A DNA stretch of 64,000 nt from Xylographa opegraphella (Eukaryota). Under the pieces are notes generated by a model. The model did no database searches. It saw nothing but the letters and a program-made list of their open reading frames with translations, and was not told where the DNA came from. Positions 9,116 through 48,489 of the stretch are shown one piece after another. The position numbers and the translations under genes are program-made. Location: positions 124,001 through 188,000 of the forward strand of contig JALDZX010000025.1 in the NCBI GenBank assembly GCA_022813865.1, written 5' to 3'. Numbering within the stretch: the first letter of the stretch is position 1; every line of letters begins with the position of its first letter.

Positions 9116-10848
9116 TCAACCAATACTGTGTGCTCTAGCCGGGTTGCCGTTCGACTGCGACTTTTCAGCACCTCGAGCCACAAGGGCGATCAGTGCCGCT
9201 CCAACGCCACTGCCGTCCTTTGCGATCCCTATTCGGATCTTCTTTTCTCCTTCTGGCCCAATTTCGGGAATCTCTCTTAATGCTTCCCGAAGGTAGTCTT
9301 CGAAGCCAGGATAGTATTCCACGACGCTACCATCAACCCCAATATCGATGACATCCTCTTCCTTGACAGCCTCACTGGTTTCGGCTTTCGTTTCTGATGG
9401 CTTGCCTCCAGTCGTTATGGCTGTTGTGGATGTATTGATAGTGTCTTTATTAAGTCGGCCAGTAGAGATGACAATTGCGCCTAAAGCTACAGCACTCAAC
9501 CTTGCTGCTCGCTTGCCAATAGCCAGAGCAAGCATTTTGACGGCTTCCGCATCCTCAAAGCTTGCTGCGCTTATCGAAAGGTCTCTGTCAAGGACTTGTC
9601 GGACAATCCTTAGATCAGGGCTATGGTCTTCAGATACTATACTAAGGAAGCTTGTGTCGAGACCCCACTGCTCATATAGAGCCGAATTGTCATCGATAGT
9701 CGTGGTCGAATGGACATCGTTGACTCCAGAATGCTCATCTTTGAGAAATGCGACATGAGGTCGATTCATCATGGAAAGCATGGCTCTTCTCAGAATTTCG
9801 CCCAGAAACATGCCAGATATACGCTTCTCGAACATTTGGATTCCCGGGTTGACACTTTCTTTGTCGAGATCTTCATCGTAGGGTGTGTTTGGGAGTACAC
9901 TCAAGTCATTATCAAAGGAGCCCCATTCAGTATTGATTATCATTTCTCCAGTAGATTTGTCGTAGTCGCTGCCATTCACAGAGACCATCTTCTTGACTTT
10001 GTCCAGTCGCTCCACATACGCACCATTGGTTCCGGTACCGAAGATGGCACCTAGCAGGGTTCCAGTCTTACCTGGTGACGTGTACGATCGTGCCATCAGA
10101 GTTCCCACCGTATCGTTGACCAAAGCAGCCACTTTCACTGGTAAGTGCAGCTTGTCGATCTCCTCCTGAAGTAGCGCGCAGACATCCTTTCCAACGGCAT
10201 CTTGAATATCAAATCCTTTCGTCCATCGAATAAGTTTGCCAGAGTTGATTCCCACCTGATCGACCGGAAAACTGAACGTGAATCCCAGATAGAAATTCTC
10301 TTCGTCTTTGTATCCGTCGGTCGCGCTCATGGTTTTACGTCTACGAACTCCAGCCTCGTAGTGCTCCTCATGGTGAGTCTTGAGGAATATCTGTATCTGC
10401 CTCGCCAGAAAAGAGAAGAGTTCCTCCGCTGTTTTCGCGACCATCAGCTCTCGAGGTATGGCGACCTTTGATTGAGTGAGAGAGAAGGTGGAGTCTCCGT
10501 TGAGGTGAATTGAGCAAACTCGAAAATTCGTTCCACCGAGATCAACAGCCATATACAGACCCTATTTCACAATCAATGTCTATAGTTGATCCAATTCCCA
10601 AGCATCTATACCTTCTCCGTACCATTGGGCACTGCTGTTACGTAGGTAGGGATTTGGCTCATCGTCGCGCCAACCTTTTGGAGGCCCTCGTCTATGTATT
10701 GGAAAGTTCAGTACATAATTTTGTGTAGACCATCACACATTTTGAACAAACCCATTTCCTTCATGAACTCTTTCAATCCCTTGTTCACCGCCTCTGCCGG
10801 ATACTCGAACTCCGCAGCCACCTTCCGCGCCTCCTCCATTAGCGACAT
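9116..10848 (-). CDS. glkA: Glucokinase/hexokinase (GlkA/Glk1-like)
   Basis: DLGGTNFRV, LGFTFSFP, WTKGF, VNDTVGT, GTGTNG and DGSGVGAA motifs; N-terminus MSLMEEARKVAAEF joined by two short introns (~10560-10760). Confidence 0.9.
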
Positions 10849-12082
10849 CTTGAGCACACGTGTGAATGGCAGATCTCCTGAGAATAGATCCTTATTGATA
10901 CATACACCCGCAGAAGATCGGGCGAAAGGCTCAGGCTGCAGATCAGTTATGGCCAGGAAAGAGGACTGATCCGACGATAGAGAAGGCCAAAGGAACTGAA
11001 CCGTAAGAACGATGACGAGGACGGCAAAGGAAAGGAGCTGAGTGTTTGTCCACCTCGATTGTCGCGACAATTTTGTAGATATTTTATACTCGCCGTAAGA
11101 ATAGGACACAGCAACCGGAGAGGTCGTTTCGAAGGGAGGAGGAACGTGAGTCTCGAGGTTAGAGAGCGCCAATGCTGCGGTTCGTGACACGAGCAGGTTC
11201 GATTATGGCAGGTGGGGCCGAATAACCTTTAAGCTCCACGTCCAGATGATCCCGGTAGTGCTGCAAGAGGTCCAGAATGCTTTGGTCGCAAGCACACCAG
11301 AGAGAAGAAGCACAGACGGCTTTCGACCGGCTTCAATTGAGGGGCATGCGTGTTTCGAATAGCAGATATTTCCGGGCCGCCGAAACGTGGGGAAGGTTGA
11401 GGAGCATCATGTGCTCGCGCCGGCTCTAAGTTACCCCGAAGGAGCAGTCACGCAGCCTCATTTCAACCCCTGCGCCACAGCCTAGCAACGACGACAACCA
11501 CGCAAAAGCGTGTACGGAGTCTGTCATCCCAAGTTGGACCTCGATACTCATGAGTAGGTACAACTGAAGGTCCAAGCGATGAACCGAAACATCCCCACGG
11601 AAGCGCTACAGTGGAAAATCTCTTCAATATATATTTTCTCATCACTGCGAACCGTGTTTCCTCACATGACACCATCGTTTCTGTAACGGTACCGTATTGT
11701 TATATATTGATCGCACCCTCCGATTGATATGAGACAACAGCGGAGAATATACGCGTCCAATCAATTAGGGAATTTGAATGGTGCCTTTACCTCGGCTCTA
11801 GTGCTGCCCTCAGTTAAATCAAGGAGTGATGCTTGGATTATAGATGACAGTACTCCAGCGGTTTCCCTCTGAATCCCATTGGAACTATACTGGTCTTTGC
11901 AGCTGTGGCTGCTAGTCCTTCATGACTTTTGCTATACGACTCTCCACTTTCCTTGCATCTGCGCTATCATCCCGCTTATTCGCAGCACGCCAAAACATGT
12001 TTATTTGATTACAACAGTTTCGTGTTCATCTCCACCATAGTTATGATTATCTCTTTACGTACGAGAGCAGGCCCGTGAGAGG

Positions 12083-16929: not shown

Positions 16930-17528
16930 ATATTCTTGGTGCTTGTGTGATATTCACTGTGATATTCAACCAAAGGACATGTCATGGGAGAAGACGGTGG
17001 CTGAGATACCATTTGTATTATTACACGTCGTCAATATCTGATCGCGACTACAGGCAGCTTTGTTGATGGAGAGGGTCAGACAACCAAGGTTTGCCTCTTA
17101 GCGACCATGTGTGTATATATAGCAAGTTACAAAAAGGCTACAAGGACATTCCCAGTCCATATCAGAGAGCAACTCCCCTGCAGACAGAGAAGGGGTTTCG
17201 AAGGTTCGTTTGCACTACTCCGTATTCTTGAAGCATGTTGTACATTTCACCAGGTCTGTTTCGTACAAAACGAACCGCTTCTTTCAGACGACATCCAGAG
17301 CAGTAGATACAAGCCGAAAGTTCCATCTTCGCATGTATTCTTTGGAGATCAGTGAAGACCCAAAAGCTTACAATTTCATATATGGAATATGAATTGCCTG
17401 CTCATGCGTGAAGAAATTGAAGAAATTTGGATTGGTGAGCTTCGAGAGCCGTGTGAGAAGGAAAAAGCTGAGTCATTAGACAGGGATCTTTGAGTCCGCA
17501 CTAGCAATCCCAACGTTCCATCTCCAAT

Positions 17529-19433
17529 ATGGACAGACTTGCAATGGATACACTAAATGGTACACAATGGGATGTCGTTATCTCAGGCACAGGCTTACCA
17601 CAGTCCCTACTTGCGCTGTATGCTCATCCCACAGCCTGGTCGAGTTGCCGTCTCTGACTGACGCAGCACTTGAGGAAGAGCTCTTTCCCGTTCCGGGAAG
17701 AGAATTATCCATGTGGATCACAATACTTATTATGGAGGAGCGGATGCTGCTCTTAGCTTACAAGATGCAGAGGCTTGGGTACATATAGTGAATGAGCATA
17801 ATGATACACTGGACAGAAATCAGAATTCGCAAAACGATGGAAAAAGTCGAGGTGCTCTACCCGTCGTTTTCCAGAAAGCGGCGATTTTCATACCTACCGA
17901 AAAAGCCAACGTATCGGCACCCAGAGCTCCGGTCTCTGAGCTGGGGTATTCTCGGGCTTACAGTCTTGCTTTGTCGCCACAGCTGATATATACGCGTTCC
18001 GAATTGTTACCTACTCTTGTGTCATCGAAAGTATATCGACAACTGGAGTTTCTAGCGGTCGGTAGCTGGTGGCTGTATGAGTCGGACAAAAGAGATGAGA
18101 GTCGTGCAGTGCCTTCAGCGAAGGATAACACAGGTGGTAAATTAAAGAAAATACCGGGAGGGCGGGAAGATGTCTTTGCAGACAAAACGATCGACCTTAA
18201 GTCAAAAAGAAACCTGATGAAATTCTTGAAACTAGCTGCAGACGTCGAAGCTCAACAGCCCGTCCTCGCGGAATGGGGTCACCGCTCTTTTGAAGACTTT
18301 TTGACCTCACAATTCAGCATATCACTAGAGCTACAATCCGCACTTCATGCTCTTACGTTGTCGTTGCAGCCGCCGACGGCAACAAAGACATCATACGCTT
18401 TACCCCGTATCACGCGGCACCTATCGTCGATTGGTGTATTTGGCCCCGGCTTCGGGTCAGTCATTCCAAAGTGGGGCGGCATGGCAGAAATAGCACAAGT
18501 TGCTTGCCGAGCTGGCGCTGTAGGTGGCGGCATCTACGTCCTTGGTAAAGCTGTCATTGATATTCGCAACAACCACCCGGTGCCTAATGAGGTAAACCAA
18601 CGAAGAGTAACCGTTGGCCTGCAAGATGGAGATACTGTCACGTGTGAATGGATTGCGGGTTCTGACTGTGAACTTCCTGGTCGACCCAGCATCGTTACCG
18701 ACAATAAGTCTTCGTCTTATATTTCGCGCTCTATCACCATTGTGTCATCTTCTTTACTAGAACTGTTCCCCCTCACAGCCGAGGGAGCACCACCGCCCGC
18801 AGGTGCTATTGTGGTATTTCCAACAGGGTCCATAAAACAGCGGACTTCTCCTCCTGTCTATTTTATAATACATTCGAGTGACACAGGGGAATGTCCTACT
18901 GGTCAATGTAAGCAAACCCTAATGTTCGTTTTCTTGCCTTTCATGATGATCAAACACATACGAATACTTATCTACATTGTCTGCAATTCCATTGAAGACA
19001 ATCAACCTCTGACAGTCTGATCTTGCAATCCATCCGTTCTGATGATGCTTCAAATTAATCCGGGTCGTCGGCTAACCATTGTCCGACAGGTGTCATATAT
19101 GCAAGCACGCTGGGATCTGATGCCTTTGACCTCCTCGATATAGCCATACAAAAATTCTTCATGACTTTTGCGGAAGAAGAGAGACCGTCCACGCTTTGGA
19201 AACTGCAATATTCCCAGCAGCAACCACATCAAGAACATGAAAGCCAACCCAAAATTGATATCAACGACGGTATCAACTCATTTCCAGAGTCTGGCACAGA
19301 TCTAGCTTTCGACGACAGTACGCTCGCTACCGTCAGGGAGGCGTGGAATAAGATCAGTGGTGATACTGAGGGCTACATGCAATTTGAGGATCGGGAAATC
19401 GGTGCCTATGATGATGAAGGTGCTTTAACCTAA
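17529..19433 (+). CDS. MRS6: Rab escort protein / Rab geranylgeranyltransferase component A (GDI family)
   Basis: WDVVISGTGLPQSLLAL, DHNTYYGG, QLEFLAVGSWW, EDVFAD and ACRAGAVGGG; introns near 17618 and at 18908-19089; start at 17529 or 17544. Confidence 0.88.
18940..19022 (+). ncRNA. snR62: Intronic box C/D snoRNA, U34/snR62-like
   Basis: Box C ATGATGA 18943-18949 and box D CTGA 19017-19020; guide CTTATCTACATTGT (18967-18980) before a D'-like CTGC is antisense to the recalled 25S rRNA motif ACAAUGUAGAUAAG; lies in an unusually long (182-nt) intron. Confidence 0.7.
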
Positions 19434-21619
19434 TAATATGTTGTTCATGTCGGAATTATAGACTGCAAGATGGTTAGATGACTAGCGATATTGTTTTTTT
19501 GCACTATTATCTCCCGCCCAAGATAGAATATCGAGGTCGTCCCTCGTCAACCTACATACGAGAAACCTCGACATAGAGTATGTCAATATAACGAAGCATG
19601 CGGACCACCCAGATATGGCAACGAAGGACTCCTTCGCAACCATTGGAGACAGCGCCATTTTAGGTGTAATATAGTCACTACCTTACTGGGTACGCTCGAA
19701 GAAGGGTTTACAAAGACTTCATGAAATTCAGCCAAAACCAAACAGCCACGTCTCGAACTTCCCTTGGCAGCCTTGGCAAAAGAAATCTCAATGTGAAACC
19801 AGAGTGCTTTCACGTTTGTCGGCCTTCCAAAGAGAAACTGGCCTGAACGATTCCTTTAATCATCAGTTGTTGTACTCGAACGTGACTTCCAATAGCAGCC
19901 CTAGGCTCTCGATTTAGACTTCGTGCAATCTCGGGGTCGCATATCGGTATTGATGAAAACCCTCAATAGTACACATGATGATGCTGCTGATGACAAAATT
20001 TACTTGCTTTACATGTCTGATAATACTTTGCAAATGAGCTTTTCTTGTCATTTCCTTGTCTTTGTTCCCTCCTTCTATAGTCATCTACGTGTATATCGAA
20101 CTTCTAATATTAGAGAAGTTATCTCAGCCCGGCTCAGCTGTGCATCACTTCTAGCCTCTGCTATATCTATCGCCAATTGTACCGTTCGATCATCTCATAT
20201 GCCTTCTCCGTGAGGGATATCATCACCGCTGATATCCTTCCCGCAGCCTCTCCCACAGCCATTGCTCTGTATCTCTCCTTGTTGACTTTCGCCAACCTTG
20301 ATGTCGTTTCTTTCCGACCCCAAACCTATATAATTCCTGAATGCACATCATCATCGCCTTCCTCTTGTCCGAATTTACACTGTTCTCGCTCCCTGCCATT
20401 CCCAATCCGTCCTCCACCCACACTCTCAACACACGCAGCTCCACCCCGAATACCGCCCCCCATCTTCCCTTCACATCCCTCATCATCCCGTGCACCGCCA
20501 CTAGCTGGGCCTCCATCTGTTCGGGGCACTCCTTCACCCTAGGGCGGGTCTACCACCTCCGACGGCAGTGAAGAAAGGCCTGCGGCGGCGAATCTGTCCT
20601 TGACGTGCCGATAGCCACGGGGTACTCCCGAAGCTAGGACGTTGGGCGTCCTCAGTTGTGATGGCGAGAGCGATGATGACGGCGCCCATGTGCTCTGAGG
20701 GCAGATTGAGGACGCATTTGCTTTGTGCGGAGAAGGTTGAGGGTCGACTGGGAGGAAGAGTCGAGGCCTAGCATGCAGTGATGGCCAAGGAAGAAATTGG
20801 AGGAGAGCGGTGCTAAGTTGGGCGAGGAGTCGGGGTTTGGGGTGCTGATGAGCCAAGACTGGGCTTTCTATTTCAACGATCCGGCGCGGGCCCTGTAACA
20901 CGATCTAGCCCGCGAGACCAGCCGCCTCACGCGCATACGCCCCTGGACGTCGAGCTCGCTACGCCGTCGGACTACAGAGCTGATGCTGGCGTCTCCATGG
21001 CGCTGCCTTCCCCGCTGGAACCAGATCTCTTCGGCGACGAGGAAAGTTAGCGGTGGCAGCCCGCTGGGCTTGAGTGGGATACGAGGATCAGGTTAATACT
21101 ACTTGACGAATTAGGGTCTATGGCTGGGTTTGAGCCAGGGGGGTGGAGGGATAGACGGGCGGAAGGCCGGTGATGGGGTTGGTGGGTATGAGCGGTTGTG
21201 AAGTGGTTTATGGAAGCTAGGGCACTGGGGGAAGTATGTGTCAACATGCTGCTCGATGGGGTTTTAGGTTGTCTGGGAAATGAGCGGGGAAGCTGATTAT
21301 TGCTGGTTGCGGTGGAATGCGCTGGTTGATACCGGTCGACGGGATCTTCTGATTGCAGAACGACGCTTTGGTGCGCAGTAGGTCGCTTGAGTATCTAACC
21401 GAAGATCCTTCGCTGCTTGTCTTTGGTTATTGAAGATGAGCGTGTTGGTCCAATCGCCAAACGAAATGGAATATACTACGACGAATGCGGGGCCTGGATC
21501 ATAATAATTTAGCGCTGCACGCTCACTAGGTAGGTACCCTGTGCTAGATCTAAGAATGTAATGCGGTTTTCAACCTCACAGCGAGGTAGAGGACAGTCGA
21601 TGCATCTCGAATAGCACAT

Positions 21620-34880: not shown

Positions 34881-35727
34881 GTGATGTGCTAATCTAGGGG
34901 CATTGTCGTGGCGTGCGAAGAGTGCAAACGTAGGTATCTTGCTTTTCTGCTTGTTGTTATACGGTCGAGGTCTTTCGTATGGCTGTAACCCTGCTTGTGA
35001 TTCTCGGTATGTCACTGTTGAGCTCGTTACTGGGCCTAATCCGCTTTACTTCGTTGAGTGTATACTATTTGCATGCACTGAGAGTCTAGTGACTATTCCA
35101 GCAATGATGATGCTTTTGTGGAGTTCCCGGGGCCACAGGAGCTCTAGTGATATCGCTACGAGGCATCACTTGTGAGATCTGGATCGTCAATCACCAGCGC
35201 TGCGACTGTGATGGATCTGGTATCCTTCACTCCCAGATCACATGTTATCCTCTGCTCAGAGACAATCAACGACCATCCACGCCCATTATACCGACTGGTG
35301 CTATTTCTGCTCACTCGTGTGAAGCTTCCCTGTCCTTCCGCGTCCTCTCCTCCCTAGTACTGACCCGCACCCACGAAGATGGCCACACATGCCATGTTCC
35401 CACTTTCCTGTCCGACAAATGCTTATTCCCTCCGGGCCGATCCACAGAGCCGTCCCTTCTCCATCACCACCATCCATTTACAAGATCTTCCCCACCCTGG
35501 GGATTTTGATGGCTAATTTGAGATGGCCGCTTTGGACATACGTAGTCAAAATCCTCGAGCCCTGCCAACTTCGATTCCTGGTGTCTCGACGCTTCATCTA
35601 TGTAAAGTAGTTGTCGCACTCTCGACCCAACTCCTCCACCGTCCCTTTCCTCCAGACCGCCCTCGTTAAGGCTTTAGTATGTAACCAGAGCGTGCTTGCG
35701 TGTCCGGGCTATGATGGGCGACGGCCA

Positions 35728-35799
35728 TTTACTATCCATCTACACTTTACTATCCATCTACACTTTACTATCCATCTACACTTTACTATCCATCTACAC
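35728..35799. repeat. Minisatellite, 4 x 18 bp (TTTACTATCCATCTACAC)
   Basis: Four exact tandem copies read directly. Confidence 0.95.
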
Positions 35800-36468
35800 T
35801 GGACAGCAAAACCCACACAACGGCCACCTCCGTAGCCACACTCCAACCCACGTGCGCCCCCATCCACCCGCGCCCCGGTCCGCTCACGACCCCACGTCGA
35901 CCGTATACAAGCCGAACGGGTCCACAGTGTTTTCACCACCACCACCACCACAACACCAACATCTCCCATCATGACGAGCAGCTACCTTACCTTAATCTAA
36001 TCTCCCCATCACCGTTCACGGCTACGACACGGAGACCAAAGCCCAAAACAGGCTAGCCCACTTAGCGCGGCATGGAACCGTGTTCTCGAACGCGGCGCTC
36101 ATTGGCGGAAGCGGACCGCTGACGATGCTTGGCATGCAGATGCGCGGCCTGCAGGAAACCCTGGACGCCCAAGCTCCGCGACGACGACGACGCAGCTTCC
36201 TTCCTTCTCCGGAAGGTAGGTAGGTAGGGTCGTTGCCCCGTACGCTGTTTCCCTCCGTGCTGGGTTGCACGTGGAGCTGTGGATTGGGTAGATAGCATAC
36301 GGGGGTAAGTAGCACGAATGGGACGTCTCGAAGCATGCTGGCTCCGAAGGGGGGCCGGTATATAAGAAGGCACTGCCTACGCTGCGCGCGGGCTTTCTCG
36401 AACCACTCCGCCCGCTTCAGAGGCACGTTGACGATCCGCCCGTGCACTATCTCGCTGCTGCTGCGAGC

Positions 36469-38691
36469 ATGTTCTTCGCTATACTCGCCACCGCCCTCGC
36501 GGCGACCCCGGCGCTGGCGTGCGAGGGCTGCTACGGACCTCGCGACGAAGCCGCGCACGTCCGCAACGTGCGCCGTATGCAGCCCGGAGCGCTGAACGCG
36601 ACGACAGGCCCACGGGCGCCGCTCGAATGGGGCCAGCTCAACATCATCCACACGACCGACACGCACGGCTGGCTGGAGGGCCACCTCAAGGAGCAGAACT
36701 ACGGCGCCGACTGGGGCGACTTCTCCTCGTTCGTGACGCATATGCAGCACATGGCGGGCAACCTGGCCGTGGACCTGCTGGTCGTGGGTACGGTCTCCCC
36801 TCCCTCCACCCCGTGCTTTTGCTGTCACCGCAAGGGGTTATGATTCAGCTTGTTGACAGTGAGGCCGCCGATGTATAGATACCGGGGACCTGCACGACGG
36901 CAACGGCGACAGCGACGCCGAGTACCCCGACGGGTCGCTGTCGAACCCCATCTTCGAGAACGTGGCCTACGACGCGCTGACGATCGGCAACCACGAGCTG
37001 TACCTGGCCAGCGTGGCCGAGCTGACCTACGCCCAGTTCAGCCATTATTACGGCGAGCGCTACCTCACGAGCAATGTGCAGATCTTCAACAACGCAACGG
37101 GGCAGTTCGAGTATATCGGCCGGCAGTACCGCTACTTCACCACCGCCCACGGCTTGCGCATCATGGCCTTCGGCGTCCTGTACGACTTCACCGGCAACAC
37201 GAACGTCACCCAGGTCATCAAGGCCAAGAACCTCGTGCAGGAGCCCTGGTTCCTGAGCGCCATCAGCTATCCCCAGCCCATCGACCTCTTCCTCGTGCTC
37301 GGCCACAACCCCGCCCGCCCGACCGCCGGCGGCAGCACCTTTGGCACCATCTTCAACGCCATCCGCGCCAAGAACCCCAGCACGCCCATCCAGTTCTTCG
37401 GCGGGCACACCCACATCCGCGACTTCGCCGTCCTCGACGAAGGCTCCACCAGCCTCGAGTCGGGACGCTACTGCGAGACCCTCGGCTGGTTCTCCATGAG
37501 CGGCATCAACTCCAGCACCTACACCGGCGTCGCCCAGCCCCGTGGCGTCCCGAACCCGACCCAACCCGCCATCAAGGTCTCCAAAACCACCGCTTCAGCC
37601 GGCGTGCCCAGTCCCACAGGCGCGTTCGCGAAGCTCGTCTACTCGCGCCGCTACATCGACTGGAACCGCCTCTCGTTCGCCTACCACGCCGTCGGCTCCC
37701 AGTCCAACACCTTCGACCTGCACAGCGGGCTGCGCGTCTCGAGCGACATCACCACGCTGCGGAAGCAGCTCAACCTGACCACCCTGTACGGCTGCGCGCC
37801 CCAGTCCTACTGCCAGACGTGCGCCCCCTTCGGCTCGGCGGCGAACATCTTCCCGCTCGTGGAGACGGCCCTCGGCCTCACGGTCGTGAACGCCAGCCGC
37901 GCCAGCGTCCCGCGCCTCATCATCGTGAACACGGGCAGCGTCCGCTTCGACCTGATCGAGGGCCCCTTCACCTACGACGACTCCTTCATCGTCTCCCCCT
38001 TCACCGACGGCTTCCAGTACATCCCCAACGTGCCCTACCACCAAGCCAGCCAGGTCGTCGCGGCGCTGAACGGCAACGGCGGCGATGCGAAGCGGCGGCG
38101 CGAGCTGCAGACGCGCGACTTCGCCTTCTCGCCTCTGAGCGGCCAGGACTGCATCGACGACGTGTACGGCGCTATGGATGGGAAGCCGGGGCTGGCGAGG
38201 CGGTCCGCGCCCCTGACGAGGGGGAAGCATCGTCGGCAGACGACCAATCTGACACCTGGGTATACGACTTCCGGTTCGTCCCCCCTCTCCTCTCCTCTCC
38301 TCTCCCTCTTTCACCCACCCACTCCTTTCCACTACCCCACAACTAACCTCCTCCTCCCCTTCCCACAGACGACTTCGGCACCACCGGCGACGACACCGTC
38401 CACACCGCCATCCCCTACTTCTCCCAGCCGGACTACATCCAAGCCAACGCCTCCTTCCCCCCCGGCGGCGACCTGCCCGCCACCGTCGACCTCGTCTTCC
38501 TCGACTTCTTCGCCGACTCCGTCGTCCCCATCCTTAAGAACCTCGGCGCTAGCTACACCCTCGCCGACGTGGCCTACTATCTCGACCCGGCGTCCTTCAC
38601 CACCCAGACCTACCTGCCGCTGTACGCGCAGATGGCATGGCAGGCCAATGTGCCGAACTGTCCGATCGGGAATGGCTTTTCGACGCGGTAG
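36469..38691 (+). CDS. Secreted calcineurin-like metallophosphoesterase / 5'-nucleotidase family (YHR202W-like)
   Basis: Signal peptide [40 protein letters not shown] and GGHTHIR; introns 36788-36878 and 38274-38368. Confidence 0.88.
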
Positions 38692-39129
38692 GAGAGGCGG
38701 GGGGTGGGGGGGTGGGGGGGGGGGAAAGGGGGATGTAAATAGGTTTCACGGGTCAAATTTTAGAATCAATAACATGTACATTGCGACCTGATATATATGT
38801 GCGAATGTATGTCCACTGCGCAGTTTGTGATCTAGGTATCAAGCCCCCCCCGCAGAGCCCTGAAGCGAATGCCTCCCATCTGCGACGACGCTTCTGCACG
38901 GACAAGTGCGCAGTCGCGGCCGGTAGGTACAGTGGTAAACCACACGCTTTGGCATGGAATGGCAGGGTCCTCCAATAAACTACCCCGTAGATAATCCCAA
39001 GCCGAGGGATGCGGCAAAAACACGCGTCACCCCAGTGGTTGTTCAGCCTACCCATCGACCATGTGGGACGCAGGAAGTCCTCGAGATCCACGACACGAAG
39101 GCATGAGTCATGAAAATAATGACACCCCC

Positions 39130-40020
39130 AGCCTCGTGGGAGCGGCCACGAATCGCGAATCGGCGCGAGGGACCGCCGCCTCCTGGCATATATGGTTGAC
39201 ACGATTCAGGAGTTCGGGCGCCTTGATGCGCGTCTTGGGGTTGACGTCGAGCAATCTGGGGCCGCAGGCTAGCGAACCACCGAGGCCGGGTGGGCCGTCG
39301 GCGGGGGAACTCGTCCCTCGGCCGCTTGATGGTTTTCGTGATGCACCAGTGGAGGTATGTGTGGCCCTCAGTGTCCTTTGGCCAGAAGCTGTCCTCGTCG
39401 GCTTTGTCGGAGGAGGCTGGGAGGCGGAGGGCCTGCCGGCGTTCGCGGAACTGCTGCGCTTCCTCGTAGCCCCACGAGGCCTAGGTGAGCATCTCGAGGA
39501 AGACGCAGCCGAGGGACCAGACGTCGTACGGCCGCGATATGGCCCCACCGTTGGCCGTGCCGTCGGGCGGGCTTCGTACATCTGCGTGCCGGTTGCAGTC
39601 GGCCAAGCACAAGTCTATACGATTGGATGACTCCTTGTTTGTTTCTGGGAAGCACAGGATGTTTTCCAGCTTGATATCGCGATGCTAGCCAGACTTTTGA
39701 ATCTCTTTGTGTGTAGCGGCATTGGCAGGGGAAAGTGCCAGACTGGATGGTGTGTTCGAAGCGGAAGCTGCCGTGACGGTGTGCACACTCTCCATAGCGC
39801 CGACTAATCCTCGAAACTGCCACAAAAGCCACAGTACATTGTCTTTGTTCATCGGGCCGAAAGCCGTTCGGCTCATGTATTCGATAATATTACATTCCGC
39901 CTACGGAAGTAGCATGTAATATCATCCGTCCTGTGTCCATGAAGCATAGTGGGTGACGATCCGCTTCTCAGATATGGAGGGACGCAGTTGCTCCAAAACG
40001 TCGACTTCCTTGCGAAAATC
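39130..40020 (-). pseudogene. Protein kinase pseudogene
   Basis: Minus-strand reading FRKEVDVL..YYMLLP*AEC..G*HRDIKLENILCF..AD/GTQMYEA/SRPYDVWSLGCVFLEMLT*..LLDVNPKTR with in-frame stops and frameshifts. Confidence 0.85.
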
Positions 40021-40894
40021 TACGTGCACTCGTTCAGAAAGGAGCGGGTCTTCCACGTTGGTGGGCGCTGTTTGGAGAAAGATGTAGACCATCGACCGTG
40101 TCCTGGATTCCTGCGATGATGTCCCCAGTCAGCCTCGTCCGCACCATGTCCATTCTCATCGCTGACCTTGCTCTTGGTCAGTATTAATCTCTGCAAAGGA
40201 CTTCGATAGCTGATCACTAATAGCCTTCTATCCCTCCAACAGCTCGTTGATGGTGAAGTGGAATGTCGGAAGATGGCTCCATAGAGGAGTCGTCTCATAC
40301 ACCAATAAAATTGATGGTGGTTACACAAAGATAATGATGCGCAAGTGGAAGCCTCTAAGATACCTGTTTCCCGTCAGGCGCAAATGCATGGCAAGAAATT
40401 AGGCAGACTGATTCTGTTGCTTGGTGGTGGTGCTCCACGGGCCAGAATGGCTGCTCCAAGACTAGTTGTGCCTGGGCTATGAGGCACACATGGCATCTTG
40501 CCAATAGCTACAACCCATACCATCACTGGCCATCCATGACAATGACTTTGAAATGAATAATTAGAATGAAAAGCGTCTCCTAGAATCCTCCGACAAGGCC
40601 AGATAGAATGATGACAACTCTTGAAATACTAACACCGGTAGCCTTACTGTGGTGCTTCCTGAGATGCTATCCGATTGGATTAGGATAGGCGACGATGCGG
40701 GCGCGCGGTGTCTTGAACAGGCAAGAGGCTCCAGTGTAGATCGGGCGTCAGCTCCACCGGCCGTCCGCGACATGATAACGACGAGAATGAGGCGCAGAAA
40801 AGAACAGGGCAATATTCTGGTACACCGTTCGAGTACTATTCTCATGTATGAAATACTGAGCACTAGGACCACTAGGGACAAATGAGCCACCTGT

Positions 40895-41375
40895 AGACCA
40901 CCAAGACTGATTACTTTCACAGCCGTAGCGTCGCGAGTGTTTTTTTCGGTGAAAGTCCTCATCGTTATGTTTTCCATCTTGGCCTCCTTAGCCAGGTCTG
41001 TCAAGACACTTCCAGTCCCAATATCAGGAAGCCTGGGAAGCTATGGACGATTATCAGTACGAACAACGTAATGAATCAAAGTCGGCGGCTGAATCGGTCT
41101 GTATGATTACCAAGCTTAGAGTTCCGTCAACTTTCTTCTACAAGGTTTTCACTTTCCTGCGTAGTAGTTCGATCTCCTTATGCTTCTCCTTCAGAGCCAG
41201 CTGGAAAGAGTCCAATGAATCATCAAGGTTCATCGACGAGCCATTTGCACTATCGCAGAACTGCTCGTAATTCCCAGTCGAAGTTACGGTAGTACGGTGT
41301 CTTGAGTTGAGGATCAAAGGATATCAATGATCTGATCTTCAAGGTCTTTTGGTCGTTGACATAAATTGACTCCAT
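40895..41375 (-). pseudogene. Remnant of a fungal CorA-like (coiled-coil plus C-terminal TM) protein
   Basis: KDLEDQIIDIL..EIELLRRKVKTL*KKVDGTLSL / intron / LTDLAKEAKMENITMRTFTEKNTRDATAVKVI, ending where the TM helix should begin; stop codon and frameshift; family match from memory. Confidence 0.6.
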
Positions 41376-41719
41376 ACAGATTTTGCACCCAAGCCAATTC
41401 GTAATTGTATCCAGTTCGGACCAAGTAAGGTGTCTTTACATTGATTCGTTCAATGGACCGCATTTAGCGCTTAGGAAAGACAAGCTCTGGACCTGGGAGT
41501 TAAGAAGAGGTTTGCTAAACCTGCATCACTTGGTCTGCAGTGCAGACGCAACATGTTGTAGGCTGGCACGAGTGCGGCTGTGCTGGAGAGCGCCAGCCCC
41601 CCACCCGTCCAGCCGTATCACTGGGCTCGAGAAATGTCATTCTAGGTGACAAAACTATGACCACTCTCTTTCTCTGACATCTTTATCTATACCCAAAGTA
41701 CACTGGAACGAATACTACA

Positions 41720-44700
41720 ATGAGTTTCGGAGTTAGTATCAGTGACTTTTTGGCAGTCATCGAGTTGGCCAAAAGGATCAGAAAAGACTTCGCAGATGCC
41801 CCCAACGAGTTCAAGGGCGCCTTAGACGTGTACGCGCCCATAACACAGAACCGATCATTACTGACATATGTATTCATAGAGTGCGGAGCCTCTCGATTGT
41901 CCTTCAAGACGCTGAAGTAGCCGCATCGGGATGGGACCTTAGCCCTCAACAGGAAACAGATTTGCAGACTATTAGCGATGGCTGTCAGAGCATCCTTGCC
42001 GAGTTGGAACGCACATTGGCCAAATACACAGAGCTCGAATCACATCATACAGGGATAAGACGCAAGATAAAAAGAGTATGGAAGCGACTATCCATAGAAC
42101 CAGAGGATATCCGCAACCTTCGAAGTCGTGTTAACGATAATATCGCCTTACTGAATACCTTTACGTTACAGCAAACAAGAAACGACACTACGAGACTAGT
42201 GCGATACCAAGAAGATCAAGAACAGCAGTCGATCCTGGACTGGCTATGTCCGGTCGACTATTTTCCTCAACAGAATGACTTCCTCAGGCAGCGACAAGCC
42301 GGAACAGGACAGTGGCTCTTAGACTCGACTAAATTTAAAGCTTGGATAGAAACCAAGCATCAGACACTGTTTTGCCCGGGCATCCCAGGGGCCGGAAAGA
42401 CAATTCTTACGTCAATTGTGGTCGAACAGCTTTTTACACGCATTAGAGGCGATTGCAGTATTGCTTTCGCGTACATCTACTGCAATTTCAAACGGCAACA
42501 CGAGCAATCATTGGAACATCTACTTGCAAGCTTACTGAAGCAGCTGGCGCAAGGCAGACATCATCTGCCGGAGAATGTCAAAACCATCTATGCCCGGTGC
42601 AGAGATCAGGAGACCCGGCCGTCGGTAGATGACATCTCAGCGGTCCTTCAGTCTGTAGCCGCTGAATATTCGCGAGTCTTTATCGTCATCGACGCACTAG
42701 ACGAATGTCAAGTCAATAATGGCTGCTTAGCAAAATTACTATCGCACATCTCTAACCTTCAGAGCAAGTGTCGAGTGAATTTCTTTGCGACGTCAAGATT
42801 TATTCCAGACATCACGGAAAGATTTCAACGGGACGTGAGACTGGAGATTCGTGCCAACAAGCAAGACGTGCAGCGATATGTGGAAGGACATATTGATGAA
42901 CTGCCACGTTTTGTTCGACGTGACCCGGATCTGCAGCAGGAGATCAGCTCTGAGATTGTCAAAGCTGTCGATGGCATGTACGTTGCTTCTTCCTTGTTTC
43001 AAACCCCTGCTGATCTTAATAGGTTTCTACTTGCACAACTTCACATTCATTCTTTAAAGGGAAAGAGAGCACCAACGGCTGTCCGCGATGCTTTAAAGAA
43101 GCTGCCCACTGGCACAGAAGCATATGACTATGCATATTCTGATGCTATGAAACGAATTGAAGGACAGCTTTCAGATCAAGCAGAGCTTGCGAAGGAAGTT
43201 TTATCGTGGATCACTTGCGCAAAGAGACCGCTGACTACCTTGGAACTTCAGCATGCACTTGCTATCAAAGCCGACCATACGGAATTTGACGAAGGCAATA
43301 AACCAGACATTGAGGATATTGTTTCAGTATGTGCCGGACTGGTCACAGTTGACGAGGAAGGTGGTATCATTCGCCTCGTCCATTACACAACACAAGAATA
43401 TTTCGAGCGGACGCAAAAGGAATGGTTTCCAACAGCAGATTTCGATATTTCGGCAAGCTGCGTGACCTACCTTTCATTTTCCGTTTTTGCATACGTTGAA
43501 CACGTGCGTAGGATTAATGGGGTTCCATCGTATGTTCATTGCAGAATCCTATATTTTTATTAATTTTAATTATTTTCAAGAGTCTGTTACGAGAAATCTT
43601 ACAATCGAGAGGTTTCGGACTATTACAATGATGCAGAGGATCGGGAAGATAATACCTACGAGGGTCGCTTTCGAGAGCGAATGCTACTCTATCCGCTGTA
43701 TGACTATGCTACACAGTATTGGGGACATCATGCCCGCCAGGCATTAAGTCTTCCTCGCGGAGTTCTTGAGCTTTTGCAGTGCGAAATCAAAGCAGAAGCA
43801 GCAGCTCAAGCATTGCTGTACCGGTGGCCTCATGGCGGATACACCCAAAAGTTTCCAGGGCAGATGACGGGACTGCATTTAGCGGCGTATTTTGGAATTA
43901 CAGAATCATTTGCGAAAATTCTGCAAAGTGCTTCGGTCAACGCGAAGGACAGCTACGATCGAACGCCGTTGTCGCATGCCGCCGAGGAAGGGCACTCAAC
44001 CGTGGTCAAGCAGCTGCTCGAGGCCGGAGCCGATATCGAGTCGAAGGACCAACGAGGTCAAACTTCGTTACATTATGCTGTTGGAAATGGTCACTTAGCC
44101 GTGGTCAAGCAGCTACTCGAGGCCGGAGCCGATATCGAGTCGAAGGGCCAACGAGGTCAAACTTCGTTACATTATGCTGTTGGAAATGGTCACTTAGCCG
44201 TGATCAAGCAGCTACTCGAGGCCGGAGCCAAGGTCGAGTCGAAGGACAAAGAAGGTCAAACTTCGTTACATTATGCTGCTGAAAATGGTCACTTAGCCGT
44301 GGTCAAGCAGCTGCTCGAGGCCGGAGCCGAGATTGACTCAAAGGACATAGACGGTCGAACGCCGTTATCGCATACCGCCGGGAAAGGGCATTCAACCGTG
44401 GTTAAGCAGCTGCTCGAGGCCGGAGCCGAGATTGACTCTAAGAATAATCACGGTCAAACGCCACTATTGTATGCCGTCTGGGTAGGATATTCAACCGTGG
44501 TTAAGCAGCTGCTCGAGGCCGGAGCCGAGGTCGACTTGAAGGATAATTACGGTCGAACGCCGTTATCGGATACCGCCTGGAAAGGGCATTTAATCGTGGT
44601 TGAGCAGCTACTCGAGGCCGGAGCCGATATCGAGTCGAAGGACAAAGAAGGTAAAACTTCGTTATATTATGCTGCTGTAATGGGGCATTCAATCGTGGTT

Positions 44701-45043
44701 AAGCAGCTGCTCGAGGCCGGAGCCGAGGTCGACTTGAAGGATAAATACGGTCAAACGCCGTTAACGTATGCCGCCTGGAAAGGGCATTCAACCGTGGTTA
44801 AGCAGCTGCTCGAGGCCGGAGCCGATATCGAGTCGAAGGACAAAGAAGGTAAAACTTCGTTACATTATGCTACTAAAAAATGGTCACTTAGTCGTGGTCA
44901 AGCAGCTGCTCGAGGCCCGAGCCGACCCCGCGTCAAAGGATAAGTACAGTCGAACGCCGCTATCGTATGCCCTTAAGGACGAGTACTGGTCCCCATCACC
45001 ACGTAAAAATGATAGCCCCGATGGAATCTTTCAAGGTGTCTAA
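41720..45043 (+). CDS. Fungal NLR-like STAND protein: SesA/HeLo-like N-terminus, NACHT, winged helix, ankyrin repeats (frameshift in last full repeat)
   Basis: MSFGVSISDFLAV N-terminus; Walker A GIPGAGKT, Walker B FIVIDALDEC, LTTLELQHALA and RLVHYTTQEYF; introns ~41829-41878, ~42979-43022 and 43530-43580; as read the ORF stops at 44943, the shifted frame at 45043. Confidence 0.88.
43945..44970 (+). repeat. Tandem 99-bp ankyrin repeat array (~10 units, high internal identity)
   Basis: Near-invariant AAGCAGCT(G/A)CTCGAGGCCGGAGCC (KQLLEAGA) recurs every 99 bp. Confidence 0.95.
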
Positions 45044-45689: not shown

Positions 45690-48489
45690 CTAGCCAGTAG
45701 TTTTCGCAAACACAAAGGATACGTCGATCGTCTCATCTTTCAGCACATCTAGTAGTATATCATCGTGAATGAGCGCTTCCATGTTCTCATCCATCCCCGG
45801 CTTGAAGTCCAAGGTGTTGACATGTGAGTAATTCATCAGGGACAGCAGCTTCGCTCCGCGACCCTTGGTCTTCGCCGCTTCTGCCGCCTCTCGTATCTTC
45901 CTTTCCTGATCCTCCATGTTGACCTGAGAAGACTTCAGAAGGGTGGGTATATCCAGAAGCTCATCATCCTCATCGACAGGATCTTCTATAGCCTCCTCAT
46001 CTACCGGTGAGACATCCGGCAACCCCTTTCCACCACATTTACAGCCAATCAGTTCGTGTGTTTGACAAGCGAGCTTCTCATCCAGCGTGAACAGGTCCTT
46101 CAGCTCCTCCTGCGTGAAGCTACTGGCGCCACCCTTCTTATCCATCACACTACTCGCAAGGCCGAGCTTCGTTACTTGCCGCTGCCAGATCTTCTCGTCC
46201 AAGCCACCGGCCATGAGAAATCGGTAGATGACACATGGGCGTTTCTGGCCATCACGATGGATCCGAGCCATCGCTTGCGCATCAATGGATGGGTTCCAGT
46301 CTACGTCGAACAATACTAACCGCGAAGCGCCAATGAGGTTGATGCCCAACCCACCGGCTTTAGCCGAGAGGAGAAAAGCAGTAATGGCGCTGGCAGGTGC
46401 TCTGTTGAAAGTCTCCACCAGATCTTGACGCTTGCTGGCAGGCGTGGTTCCATCGAGGCGCAAATATTTGATGCCATTTTTTGTCAGGAAAATCTGTAGT
46501 TGATCGAGTGTGGTAGTAAAGTTTGAAACAAGCACGATTTTTTCGGAAGTCGTGTTTTGCAGAGTATGGAGGAGTTGATCGAGCACGCGGATCTTCGTAC
46601 TACTACCCTGTTCATGCAGGAGATGGCGAGGTATACTTGCTATAAGCGAAGCAGTGAGAGGATTGATAGGCTTTTCGGAATTATTCGTGACCATGTCGCC
46701 GAGCAGTTTCGGACCATTGCAAACTTTCCTCAACAAGGTGATCAGCTGTAGTTGAGTTTCCGAACTACCCAAGGCCGACTGGAACATCGGAGATGCAAGC
46801 ACGTGCTTGTACACCTCGGCTTGAGCCGGTGTGGGACGACATAGGAGGACGTACTCGGTCTTTGGTGGCAGATACTTTGAAAGAATGTCTGCTGTACGTC
46901 TGAGAATAAACTTCGTAGTCTCGGAAGCCAGTTCAGCACTCCTTGCTTCTCCCAGCTCAACCTCTTCGCTATTGGCCTCTGGCTGCCTGCTCTTCAAGAT
47001 GGGATTCTCAAATTTCTTTGTGAATAACTTGTACGTCTCAAGAAGTCCTGGATTGACGAAATCGACCATCATGAAGAACTCGCTGAGATCATTCTGGATC
47101 GGCGTTCCTGAAAGAATAACCCTTCTCGTGGTATTCAACGACTTGATAGCCTGTGCACTTTTGTTCGTTGCTGTCTTCAAACGATGTCCTTCGTCGGCAA
47201 TGACGATGTCGATCCCACCGCCCTTCTTCAGCTCTTCTGTAACACTTCTTATTTTTTCATACCCGATGATCATCACGTTATAGCTCTTGCTCTTAGTAAA
47301 GTCGGAAAGTCTTATTTTCGTATTATCTGCAACAAAAACGCCGATTCGCTCATTGCCCAGCCACTTCCGGAACTCTTTCTTCCAGTTGTTGATCAGGGTA
47401 ACCGGGCACACTATCAAAGCTTTCTTGATAACCGGAGCTTCTTCGTATATTGGATTCTGCTTGAGGAGAGTCCATATCAAGGCAATGGTTTGCAAAGTCT
47501 TACCTAAGCCCATCTCATCGGCCAAAATCGCACCTTCTCCATTGAAGCCGCGCATCCCCATGACACACTCATATAAAAACTTGACGCCTTCACATTGATG
47601 GTCACGCAGATGTTTCGTCAAGATTGGGTCAATCACAACGTCAACGATAACCTTACCGTCTTGGACGCCTTGCGGTCTCTTCATCACTATTGCGCCTGGT
47701 GTAGAAGGGTCGTGCCGAGGTGTGGGTGTCTTGCCTTCCTTTTTTGGCATGATGTTGTTCACCAGCATTGGATTTTTCCATTGCGATTTTGACGCAAGAC
47801 TTTGTGGTGCGGCTATGTTGAGCTTCTTCTTCAACCCTTCCTTTTCGATATCAACTTCCTTCTTCAACGACAGCTTTGGCCTGATAGGTGCAGTAAGCGG
47901 AGTCGCAGGTGCTGTGGATTGATTGCTCGAATTCGACAACGTGCCACTCTCTAGATAGTCTTCCCGGGACAGAATTGACTCTATCTCGACATCTTTACCT
48001 GCAATAGAAAGCTTCGATTCTGGAAGCAAGGGCTCATCGCATGTTGTTCTACCCATATCCTTTCCAGATACATCTTGCAGATATGCAAACCCGTCAACAA
48101 CCCGGACGATACCGTCGCCATCCCATGTCTTGTGCTTTTTCGTTGTGTATTTTCGCCTAAAAATTACACACCTCAGCTAGTATCCTTAAGGAAATAATCT
48201 AGGCATCGTACCATAAGACATTATAGTAGCACGTCTCCGACTGTTGATCTTTCTGACGGCTGTCTGACGAGACGGCGGTGTTGAGGACTGATTGAAGAGG
48301 TTTTCGGGGTAAGGAAGATACCCCAGGCGTTCTGAACACGAGTCGGGGTAGTGACTTGATCTCGACCGAATCAACATTCTCATTCAGCCGCAGCCGTTTT
48401 GCAGGAGGACTCTGTGGATGATCATTGACTTGAGCTTGGTTCGGACTCTCCTTCTTCAAAAAAGGCGGCCTGAAGGGCTTCATTGTCAT
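45690..48489 (-). CDS. RDH54: SNF2-family dsDNA translocase Rad54B/Rdh54
   Basis: ILADEMGLGKTLQ, DEGHRLK, LSGTPIQNDL and QAMARIHRDGQK; N-terminus MKPFRPP..YYNVLW/RKYTTKKHKTWDGDG across one intron near 48160-48210. Confidence 0.9.

Follow-up and report, generated by a model that had tools for sequence, protein, structure and literature searches.

RIPK3 and MLKL form a couple of a kinase and a membrane executioner, and bacterial CorA effectors occur in type III CRISPR (clustered regularly interspaced short palindromic repeats) systems. NOD-like receptors (NLRs) of the NWD2/HET-S type carry, according to PMC9815663, a short amyloid motif at the N-terminus that recurs at the C-terminal end of a neighboring HeLo, HeLo-like or similar protein. 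Dyrka et al. (2014; PMC4986451) describe SesA and HeLo-like annotations as overlapping, and ankyrin repeats with internal conservation as typical of fungal NLRs. Here we analyzed a locus at positions 39,130 to 45,043 of a 64,000-nucleotide stretch of DNA from the lichen-forming fungus Xylographa opegraphella (contig JALDZX010000025.1, positions 124,001 to 188,000; the window), in which a kinase remnant and a CorA-like remnant on the minus strand lie beside a divergent NLR gene on the plus strand. An earlier reading made from the letters alone (the sequence-only reading) had placed these three elements at about these positions, which our analysis bears out, and had proposed that they constitute one co-inherited sensor/kinase/membrane-effector defense module with two partners inactivated in this genome. 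We conclude that a three-gene defense module is not supported and that the locus probably combines two unrelated things that became neighbors, namely a decayed tandem gene pair that is conserved in relatives and a near-intact, self-contained NLR.

Judged by gene order in relatives, the linkage between the CorA-like gene and the kinase gene is real and conserved, and the pair is predicted to be dead in this genome. Specifically, Xylographa soralifera has the CorA-like protein P0027 (MMC17_002571) and the kinase P0003 (MMC17_002572) encoded on a 298,243-bp contig, and Xylographa trunciseda has P0028 (MMC11_005331, CorA-like) and P0004 (MMC11_005330, kinase) encoded on a 76,085-bp contig. The Xylographa bjoerkii protein P0029 (MMC18_007528) is a single 1273-amino acid (aa) model that contains both PF26616, the family of the CorA-like proteins, and a kinase, and is probably an annotation merge of tandem genes rather than a fusion protein. 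Note that this merge truncates the second membrane helix. In all three of the other Xylographa species seen, the CorA-like gene lies next to the kinase gene and both are intact, as read from adjoining locus-tag numbers on contigs that agree in length and from the one merged gene model. Public metagenome contigs scanned with an alignment of 15 CorA-like proteins yielded 22 loci, 14 of which are informative in that 1.8 kb or more of downstream sequence follows the CorA-like match, with the other 8 being too short. A gene coding for an N-terminal domain (N-domain) followed by a kinase domain is present downstream on the same strand, about 1 kb beyond the CorA-like match, in 12 of the 14 informative loci. 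Because L009 equals L010 and L014 equals L015, removal of duplicates leaves the pair in 10 of 12 distinct informative loci, and the two informative loci that have no kinase downstream are L003 and L022. The pairing holds down to a CorA-like identity of 28% (L020). Pairwise distances of the CorA-like and kinase genes are also correlated across 12 taxa (r 0.86, with 1 of 5001 permutations as high), which at the level of sequence distances shows that there was no partner swapping, a pattern that is also expected of any two vertically inherited genes.

The remnants in the window have the same order, strand and spacing as the intact pairs and also keep a conserved intron, with an implied spacer of ~570 bp versus ~600-700 bp in intact loci. 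Retention of the intron and of the spacing indicates that the remnants are not a retrocopy. The kinase remnant scores 74% to X. soralifera, versus 62-70% between intact congeners, and the CorA-like remnant scores 56-65% to congeners, versus 70-76% between the intact ones. Thus, remnant-to-congener similarity is about that observed between intact orthologs, indicating that the decay is not ancient. From the gene order in relatives and in the window, the two pseudogenes derive from a single unit and are not independent debris. The proposal of a co-inherited and inactivated module survives for the kinase/CorA-like duo (3/3 Xylographa species, 12/14 loci) and is not supported for the NLR as its third member. 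The searched literature contained no description of the CorA-like/kinase pair, nor anything on fungal CorA-like proteins with kinases or NLRs; the term 'CorA' has 0 occurrences in PMC9815663, and the sole 'cora' match in PMC12258605 is the word coral.

The kinase pseudogene (39159..40111, minus strand), what is left of a gene for a protein with an N-terminal domain and a Ser/Thr-type kinase domain, was delimited by tblastn of P0003, P0004 and P0029, by read-through translation and by a homolog search. When the intact 778-aa kinase P0003 from X. soralifera was used in tblastn, a single minus-strand frame at 40035-39307 matched residues 460-719 at 67% identity (E 8e-100), which confirms the kinase remnant of the sequence-only reading. 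This frame is interrupted by four in-frame stops (39922-39924, 39901-39903, 39685-39687 and 39481-39483) and has a 17-residue gap in the DFG..APE segment that deletes the DFG. A frame change precedes the last piece of the remnant at 39260-39159 (residues 734-767, the C-terminal helix), and a weak match is present at 40111-40058 to residues 8-25 (E 0.008). Overall, residues 8-25 and 460-767 of the intact ortholog are recognizable, and ~434 codons (residues 26-459) are gone. The HRD is present and the DFG and Lys region are deleted, with Pfam Pkinase (PF00069) scoring the HRD piece at 28.2 bits, under the 31.7 cut-off.

The CorA-like pseudogene fragment (40903..41373, minus strand) was identified by phmmer with its 159-aa open reading frame (ORF), which retrieved five short fungal-type proteins (P0022-P0026, E 1e-5 to 5e-4). 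One of these short matches led in turn to 16 full-length proteins (P0027-P0042) that carry the UniRef name 'CorA-like transporter domain-containing', and all 16 of the 16 listed are pre-annotated with PF26616. With the intact proteins P0027 and P0028 (522-538 aa) as tblastn queries, 41373-40903 matches residues ~310/322-454 at 61-66% identity (E 5e-31), so that the CorA-like remnant of the sequence-only reading is likewise upheld. The recognizable piece corresponds to the stalk helices (residues ~320-454 of ~522), while the first ~320 codons are absent from the window. Its reading is disrupted by a TAG codon in frame at 41138-41140 and, near 41290-41317, by a change of frame plus a stop. The GT..AG intron of 70 nt (41110-41041), which is conserved, persists in the fragment, and an apparent 67-nt insertion turned out to be this same intron. 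The segment 40112..40902 (minus strand), comprising the former 3' end of the CorA-like gene and the intergenic spacer, has nothing recognizable left, as the membrane part of P0027 gave no significant match in any frame of 40112..40902 (184-288 of 500 shuffles score as high). A by-eye match to CorA membrane helices at 40748-40987 in another frame was rejected, with 184 of 500 shuffles scoring as high.

These lesions also bear on whether the pseudogenes could be assembly or annotation artefacts that hide truly intact genes. The window does come from a short-read assembly, and the ankyrin array of the NLR breaks the Logan contigs of the source run. Nevertheless, an artefact would have to account for ~320 and ~434 missing codons in the CorA-like and kinase genes, respectively, as well as for five stop codons in frame and two or more frame changes, all of which occur in unique sequence. 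A single 5.3-kb contig from run X1 also covers the pseudogene sequence with 0 differences, although X1 may be the source run itself. We therefore regard an artefact as extremely improbable.

We assessed the CorA fold on the intact ortholog P0027 as opposed to the fragment in the window. The AlphaFold model of this protein (mean pLDDT, the predicted local distance difference test score, 69.5) shows an alpha/beta domain at the N-terminus, then long helices that form a stalk and, at the C-terminus, a pair of membrane helices. The top Foldseek matches to this model are all Thermotoga maritima CorA (E 1.4e-9, prob 1.00, ~410 columns). In VIA-align, CorA/ZntB/Mrs2/CmaX fill the best ten rows (Z 12.4-17.5, with 241-323 residues aligned at Z 16.9-17.5), and the best unrelated row scores 10.8. 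At the sequence level, the alignment of 15 proteins shows that GMN is absent near the first membrane helix, where the invariant sequence is LIYLPAT..(S/N)FFS. Pfam CorA (PF01544) reached only E 0.13-0.72 on the short relatives of the CorA-like remnant and had no match at E<=0.01 on five full-length relatives or on the ORFs of the window. A profile made from the CorA-like alignment likewise retrieved no CorA from the PDB sequences at E<=10. Going by the predicted structure, the relation of the PF26616 proteins to CorA is visible at the fold level only. PF26616 is a fungal-only family, and Atlas clusters carry the PF26616 label.

The model of the kinase protein has a confident N-domain of ~280 residues (~112-390 of P0003), alpha/beta plus helical, followed by the kinase domain. 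In the family alignment the VAIK-type Lys is conserved, as are the HxD..N loop and DFG, and intact relatives score 69-91 bits with Pkinase; the kinase domain of the intact relatives is thus predicted to be active. VIA-align of the 778-aa model is filled by kinases, with the closest being TK/TKL (tyrosine kinase/tyrosine kinase-like) in many tied rows (Z 19.6-21.5), and the structural neighbors include RIPK1, RIPK2, RIPK3 and IRAK4. The N-domain matched no Pfam family at 1e-5 and had no usable Atlas match, and in PADLOC the kinase protein drew nothing beyond generic kinase-domain matches. Three close relatives of the kinase, P0005-P0007 (393-427 aa), have DWG replacing DFG and have models without the N-domain; these may be shortened models or a diverged sub-branch.

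The NLR gene (41720..45043, plus strand) was defined from our own gene model, from Pfam and from its identity to P0043. The model starts at the ATG at 41720 and has exons at 41720-41829, 41880-42977, 43023-43529 and 43581-44946 that are separated by introns at 41830-41879, 42978-43022 and 43530-43580. The open frame ends at a stop at 44944-44946, as in the assembly sequence an extra A in the run at 44875-44880 introduces a +1 frameshift in the last ankyrin unit, beyond which the final repeat and the tail run in another frame to a stop at 45041-45043. The NLR protein is 100% identical to P0043, the hypothetical protein MMC26_004190 of X. opegraphella, a public model that masks the frameshift by positing a spurious intron ('...KDKE|VVVKQ...') and that translates the 45-nt second intron (42978-43022) as 15 residues. 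The P-loop domain matches PF24883 NPHP3_N at 132.3 bits (E 2.5e-38, cut-off 24.8) and PF05729 NACHT at 26.2 bits, slightly below the cut-off of 26.7, with Walker A (GIPGAGKT) and Walker B (IVIDALDE) both legible in the translation. A winged helix (GPIID_WHD) is present, and the ankyrin repeats match Ank_2 at E 8e-106, so that a NACHT-type P-loop together with an ankyrin array agrees with the original description of a NACHT-ankyrin NLR. The ankyrin tandem array (43990..44970, plus strand), mapped by Tandem Repeats Finder, a repeat search and a unit listing, consists of nine to ten units of 99 nt (33 aa), with Tandem Repeats Finder giving ~9.4 copies and 82% matches, and is presumed to be the ligand-binding part. 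Ahead of the P-loop there is an N-terminal domain of ~180 aa, for which PF17107 SesA scores 18.8 bits on P0043 (E 0.0019), below the 26.3 cut-off. Many NLR homologs are pre-annotated with Pfam SesA (PF17107) or PigL_N/HeLo-like (PF17111). From its domain content, then, this is a standard all-in-one fungal NLR with a predicted effector-type N-terminal domain of its own. By family knowledge it would bind ligand with the ankyrin array, oligomerize via NACHT and act through its own SesA/HeLo-like N-terminal domain, such that no neighboring effector would be needed.

Homologs of the NLR were taken as the best 120 of 3194 significant homologs, and among these 120 P0043 is the only named Xylographa protein. 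The N-terminal half of the gene (41720-43529) has patchy relatives: after P0043 the next matches have 83-88% identity, followed by Dothideomycetes (Corynespora, Phaeosphaeriaceae, Lepidopterella and Bipolaris) at 69-72% over ~96% of the query, and no named Lecanoromycetes protein within the 120 is as close as the Dothideomycetes ones. In run X3, which belongs to the same study, a contig from a different organism holds a copy of the NLR with ~89% DNA identity over 41668-43489. The 336 letters upstream of this copy are unlike the window, which places the start of the shared NLR segment at 41668, 52 bp before the ATG, and thus between the CorA-like breakpoint at 41373 and the NLR gene. Birth-and-death evolution of NLR genes, or their transfer, may lie behind this pattern. 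At >=80% likeness, main-depth contigs of runs X2 and X3 do not cover the flanking genes, and run X1 gives no cover beyond 44840, although such holes prove nothing.

The idea that kinase, CorA-like gene and NLR together form one defense module draws on the fact that all three lie within 6 kb, with the NLR divergent from the CorA-like remnant. The distance from the edge of the CorA-like remnant (41373) to the NLR ATG (41720) is 346 bp, close to the ~350 bp given by the sequence-only reading, and this junction and NLR upstream region (41374..41719, no strand assigned) is bounded by the end of CorA-like homology on one side and includes the start of NLR-copy similarity at 41668. The sequence-only reading had named intact homologs beside NACHT-ankyrin genes elsewhere as a check; an NLR tblastn and a Pfam analysis of every ORF of 150 aa or longer (163 in total) gave a NACHT/NB-ARC gene within 10 kb in 0 of the 10 distinct pair-bearing loci, where the neighbors are housekeeping genes. 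As a trio the three genes did not co-localize in the other loci seen, whereas the kinase and CorA-like genes are neighbors in relatives. The three pair-keeping congeners are not among the best 120 NLR homologs, even though their proteomes are in the same database, and a kinase or PF26616 domain occurs in none of these 120. Furthermore, the NLR and its upstream region overlie the place of the missing 5' two thirds of the CorA-like gene, indicating that in this arrangement both could not be intact. The effector-type N-terminal domain of the NLR itself and the loss of similarity of the X3 copy at 41668 also argue against a shared module.

There are two observations that show that some NLR/CorA contacts exist, and both count against a reading in which these genes are unrelated. 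The first is the unpaired locus L003, where a NACHT-ankyrin gene lies 6 kb from a CorA-like gene; here the CorA-like gene is at 10291-11264, and an ankyrin-rich 1222-aa ORF with a NACHT piece is at 17254-20919 on the other strand. The second is the NLR homolog P0092 (Pseudogymnoascus sp., 1221 aa), 1 of the 120 best of 3194, which in addition to SesA-like, NACHT and ankyrin parts is annotated with a true CorA PF01544 at its C-terminus (E 1.5e-11, residues 968-1134), and which represents either a genuine fusion or two neighboring genes on one strand joined into a single model. With these contacts taken into account, a co-inherited three-gene module is still very unlikely, and what remains is an NLR beside a decayed conserved gene pair.

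In the history that we consider probable, that of a decayed pair and an unrelated NLR, the ancestral state would be a tandem in which a PF26616 gene for a membrane protein of CorA fold is followed after ~0.6 kb, in the same orientation, by the N-domain kinase gene. Both genes would have been lost in place through large deletions plus nonsense and frameshift mutations. Going by the breakpoints, the NLR most likely arrived through a rearrangement or insertion that also took away the 5' part of the CorA-like gene, with the orphaned kinase gene then decaying as well; alternatively, the pair may have been dead already before the NLR came. Repeat-induced point mutation (RIP), taken as TpA/ApT >= 0.89 with (CpA+TpG)/(ApC+GpT) <= 1.03, was rejected as the cause of decay, as the kinase remnant (0.62 / 1.14) and the CorA-like remnant (0.74 / 1.04) show no such signature and the composite index is negative.

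Several points weigh against loss in place next to an incoming NLR. No target-site duplication or terminal repeats were found around the NLR, so that the insertion step rests on the breakpoints; the repeats that do occur around it are short and no more than chance would give, such as one of 21 nt at 41468 and 45058. The pair-bearing metagenome loci and the window have no flank genes in common either way, and a copy whose context is unlike that of every intact pair seen would also fit a displaced duplicate. The congener evidence consists of locus tags and gene models and is silent on the phosphoesterase/RDH54 flanks and on other neighbors. The X. opegraphella DNA searched was the 64-kb window, leaving room for an intact second pair elsewhere. 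Accordingly, the remnants could be a decayed segmental duplicate that landed between the phosphoesterase and RDH54 genes, with a working pair residing elsewhere. This alternative draws on the remnant flanks having nothing in common with the surroundings of any intact pair seen, including the Csm1/AAA-ATPase neighbors that are common to L005, L009 and L012 and that are all missing from the window. On the other hand, no X. opegraphella protein is present among the 16 CorA-like or 19 kinase matches listed even though annotated proteins of this species are in the same database, an absence that is weak given that the searches are limited by word index and length. The lack of a RIP signature, which is often seen on duplicated DNA in such fungi, also speaks against a duplicate. 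Overall we consider a displaced duplicate unlikely, and loss of the pair in place beside an unrelated NLR remains the reading that we prefer.

The sequence-only reading had described the flanking genes as ordinary, and Pfam agrees. On the left is a metallophosphoesterase/NadN-C-like gene (36313..38791, plus strand; Pfam Metallophos and NadN_nucleosid_C; guanine plus cytosine (GC) content 65%), and on the right is an SNF2-family helicase (RDH54/RAD54-like) gene (45690..48176, minus strand; Pfam SNF2-rel_dom E 4e-76, Helicase_C). The window as a whole is a gene-dense fungal region that also codes for a signal-peptide peptidase, hexokinase, orotidine monophosphate decarboxylase, an aquaporin, an amino-acid permease, UTP10 and NRDE-2. 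A GC-rich block at 36000-39500 (62-68% GC) spans the phosphoesterase gene together with the kinase remnant's 3' half, and around this block, NLR included, GC is 44-53%. Upstream of the phosphoesterase gene, a short tandem repeat at 35611-35835 gives a repeated pentapeptide in the ORF translations. Just past this gene there is a long tract rich in C/G homopolymers (38700-38745), where Logan contigs from the source run are interrupted.

The locus itself is ordinary, in that fungal NLR genes come and go. More telling is the pair, whose adjacency in the same order and on the same strand holds at down to 28% identity. Fungal genomes seldom preserve linkage so stably except in metabolic clusters and allorecognition/cell-death gene pairs, which suggests that the CorA-like and kinase proteins act jointly. 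By family knowledge, it is probable that in relatives the kinase controls a pentameric, channel-like protein of CorA type without GMN, or is itself controlled by it. As a tentative and rather doubtful extension of this view, the PF26616 gene and the N-domain kinase gene might constitute an undescribed, anciently linked module of lichen-forming and other ascomycetes, in which a TKL-like kinase would be coupled via its private N-domain to a filter-less pentameric CorA-fold protein that it gates or by which it is triggered. Such a module might act as a signaling or cell-death switch like the kinase/executioner couples, and its loss in X. opegraphella would coincide with the arrival of the NLR. 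If this is a true module, then it would provide a handle for function prediction on PF26616, a large fungal family that is now without one, and X. opegraphella would be a natural loss-of-function case.

When compared with known systems, the NLR in the window has the same three-part build as the HeLo-like/SesA-NACHT-ankyrin NLRs covered by Dyrka et al. (2014; PMC4986451), and it resembles them in the high unit-to-unit similarity of its ankyrin repeats. It differs from them in its sub-threshold SesA score (18.8 bits versus a cut-off of 26.3) and in the late +1 frameshift that removes the last repeat, and is otherwise unremarkable. The pairs of the NWD2/HET-S type, as presented in PMC9815663, are similar in that an NLR adjoins possible effector genes. 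However, the window NLR has a full N-terminal domain of ~180 aa and not a short amyloid motif, and its neighbors are kinase and CorA-like wrecks without such a motif relation, with both statements made without a dedicated motif search. With the CorA/ZntB/Mrs2 channels (MIT, metal ion transporter, superfamily) the model of P0027 has its fold in common, the CorA family topping both fold searches. In contrast to these channels, the PF26616 proteins lack GMN, have no significant PF01544 match and are fungal-only; ion transport is putative for them. Finally, by analogy, the CorA-like/kinase pair would resemble RIPK3/MLKL and the CorA effectors of type III CRISPR systems in that a signaling enzyme is coupled to a membrane protein. 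The membrane partner of the pair has no known homology to MLKL, and there is no cyclic-nucleotide or S-adenosyl methionine-AMP (SAM-AMP) machinery nearby. A role of the pair in cell death or immunity is speculation.

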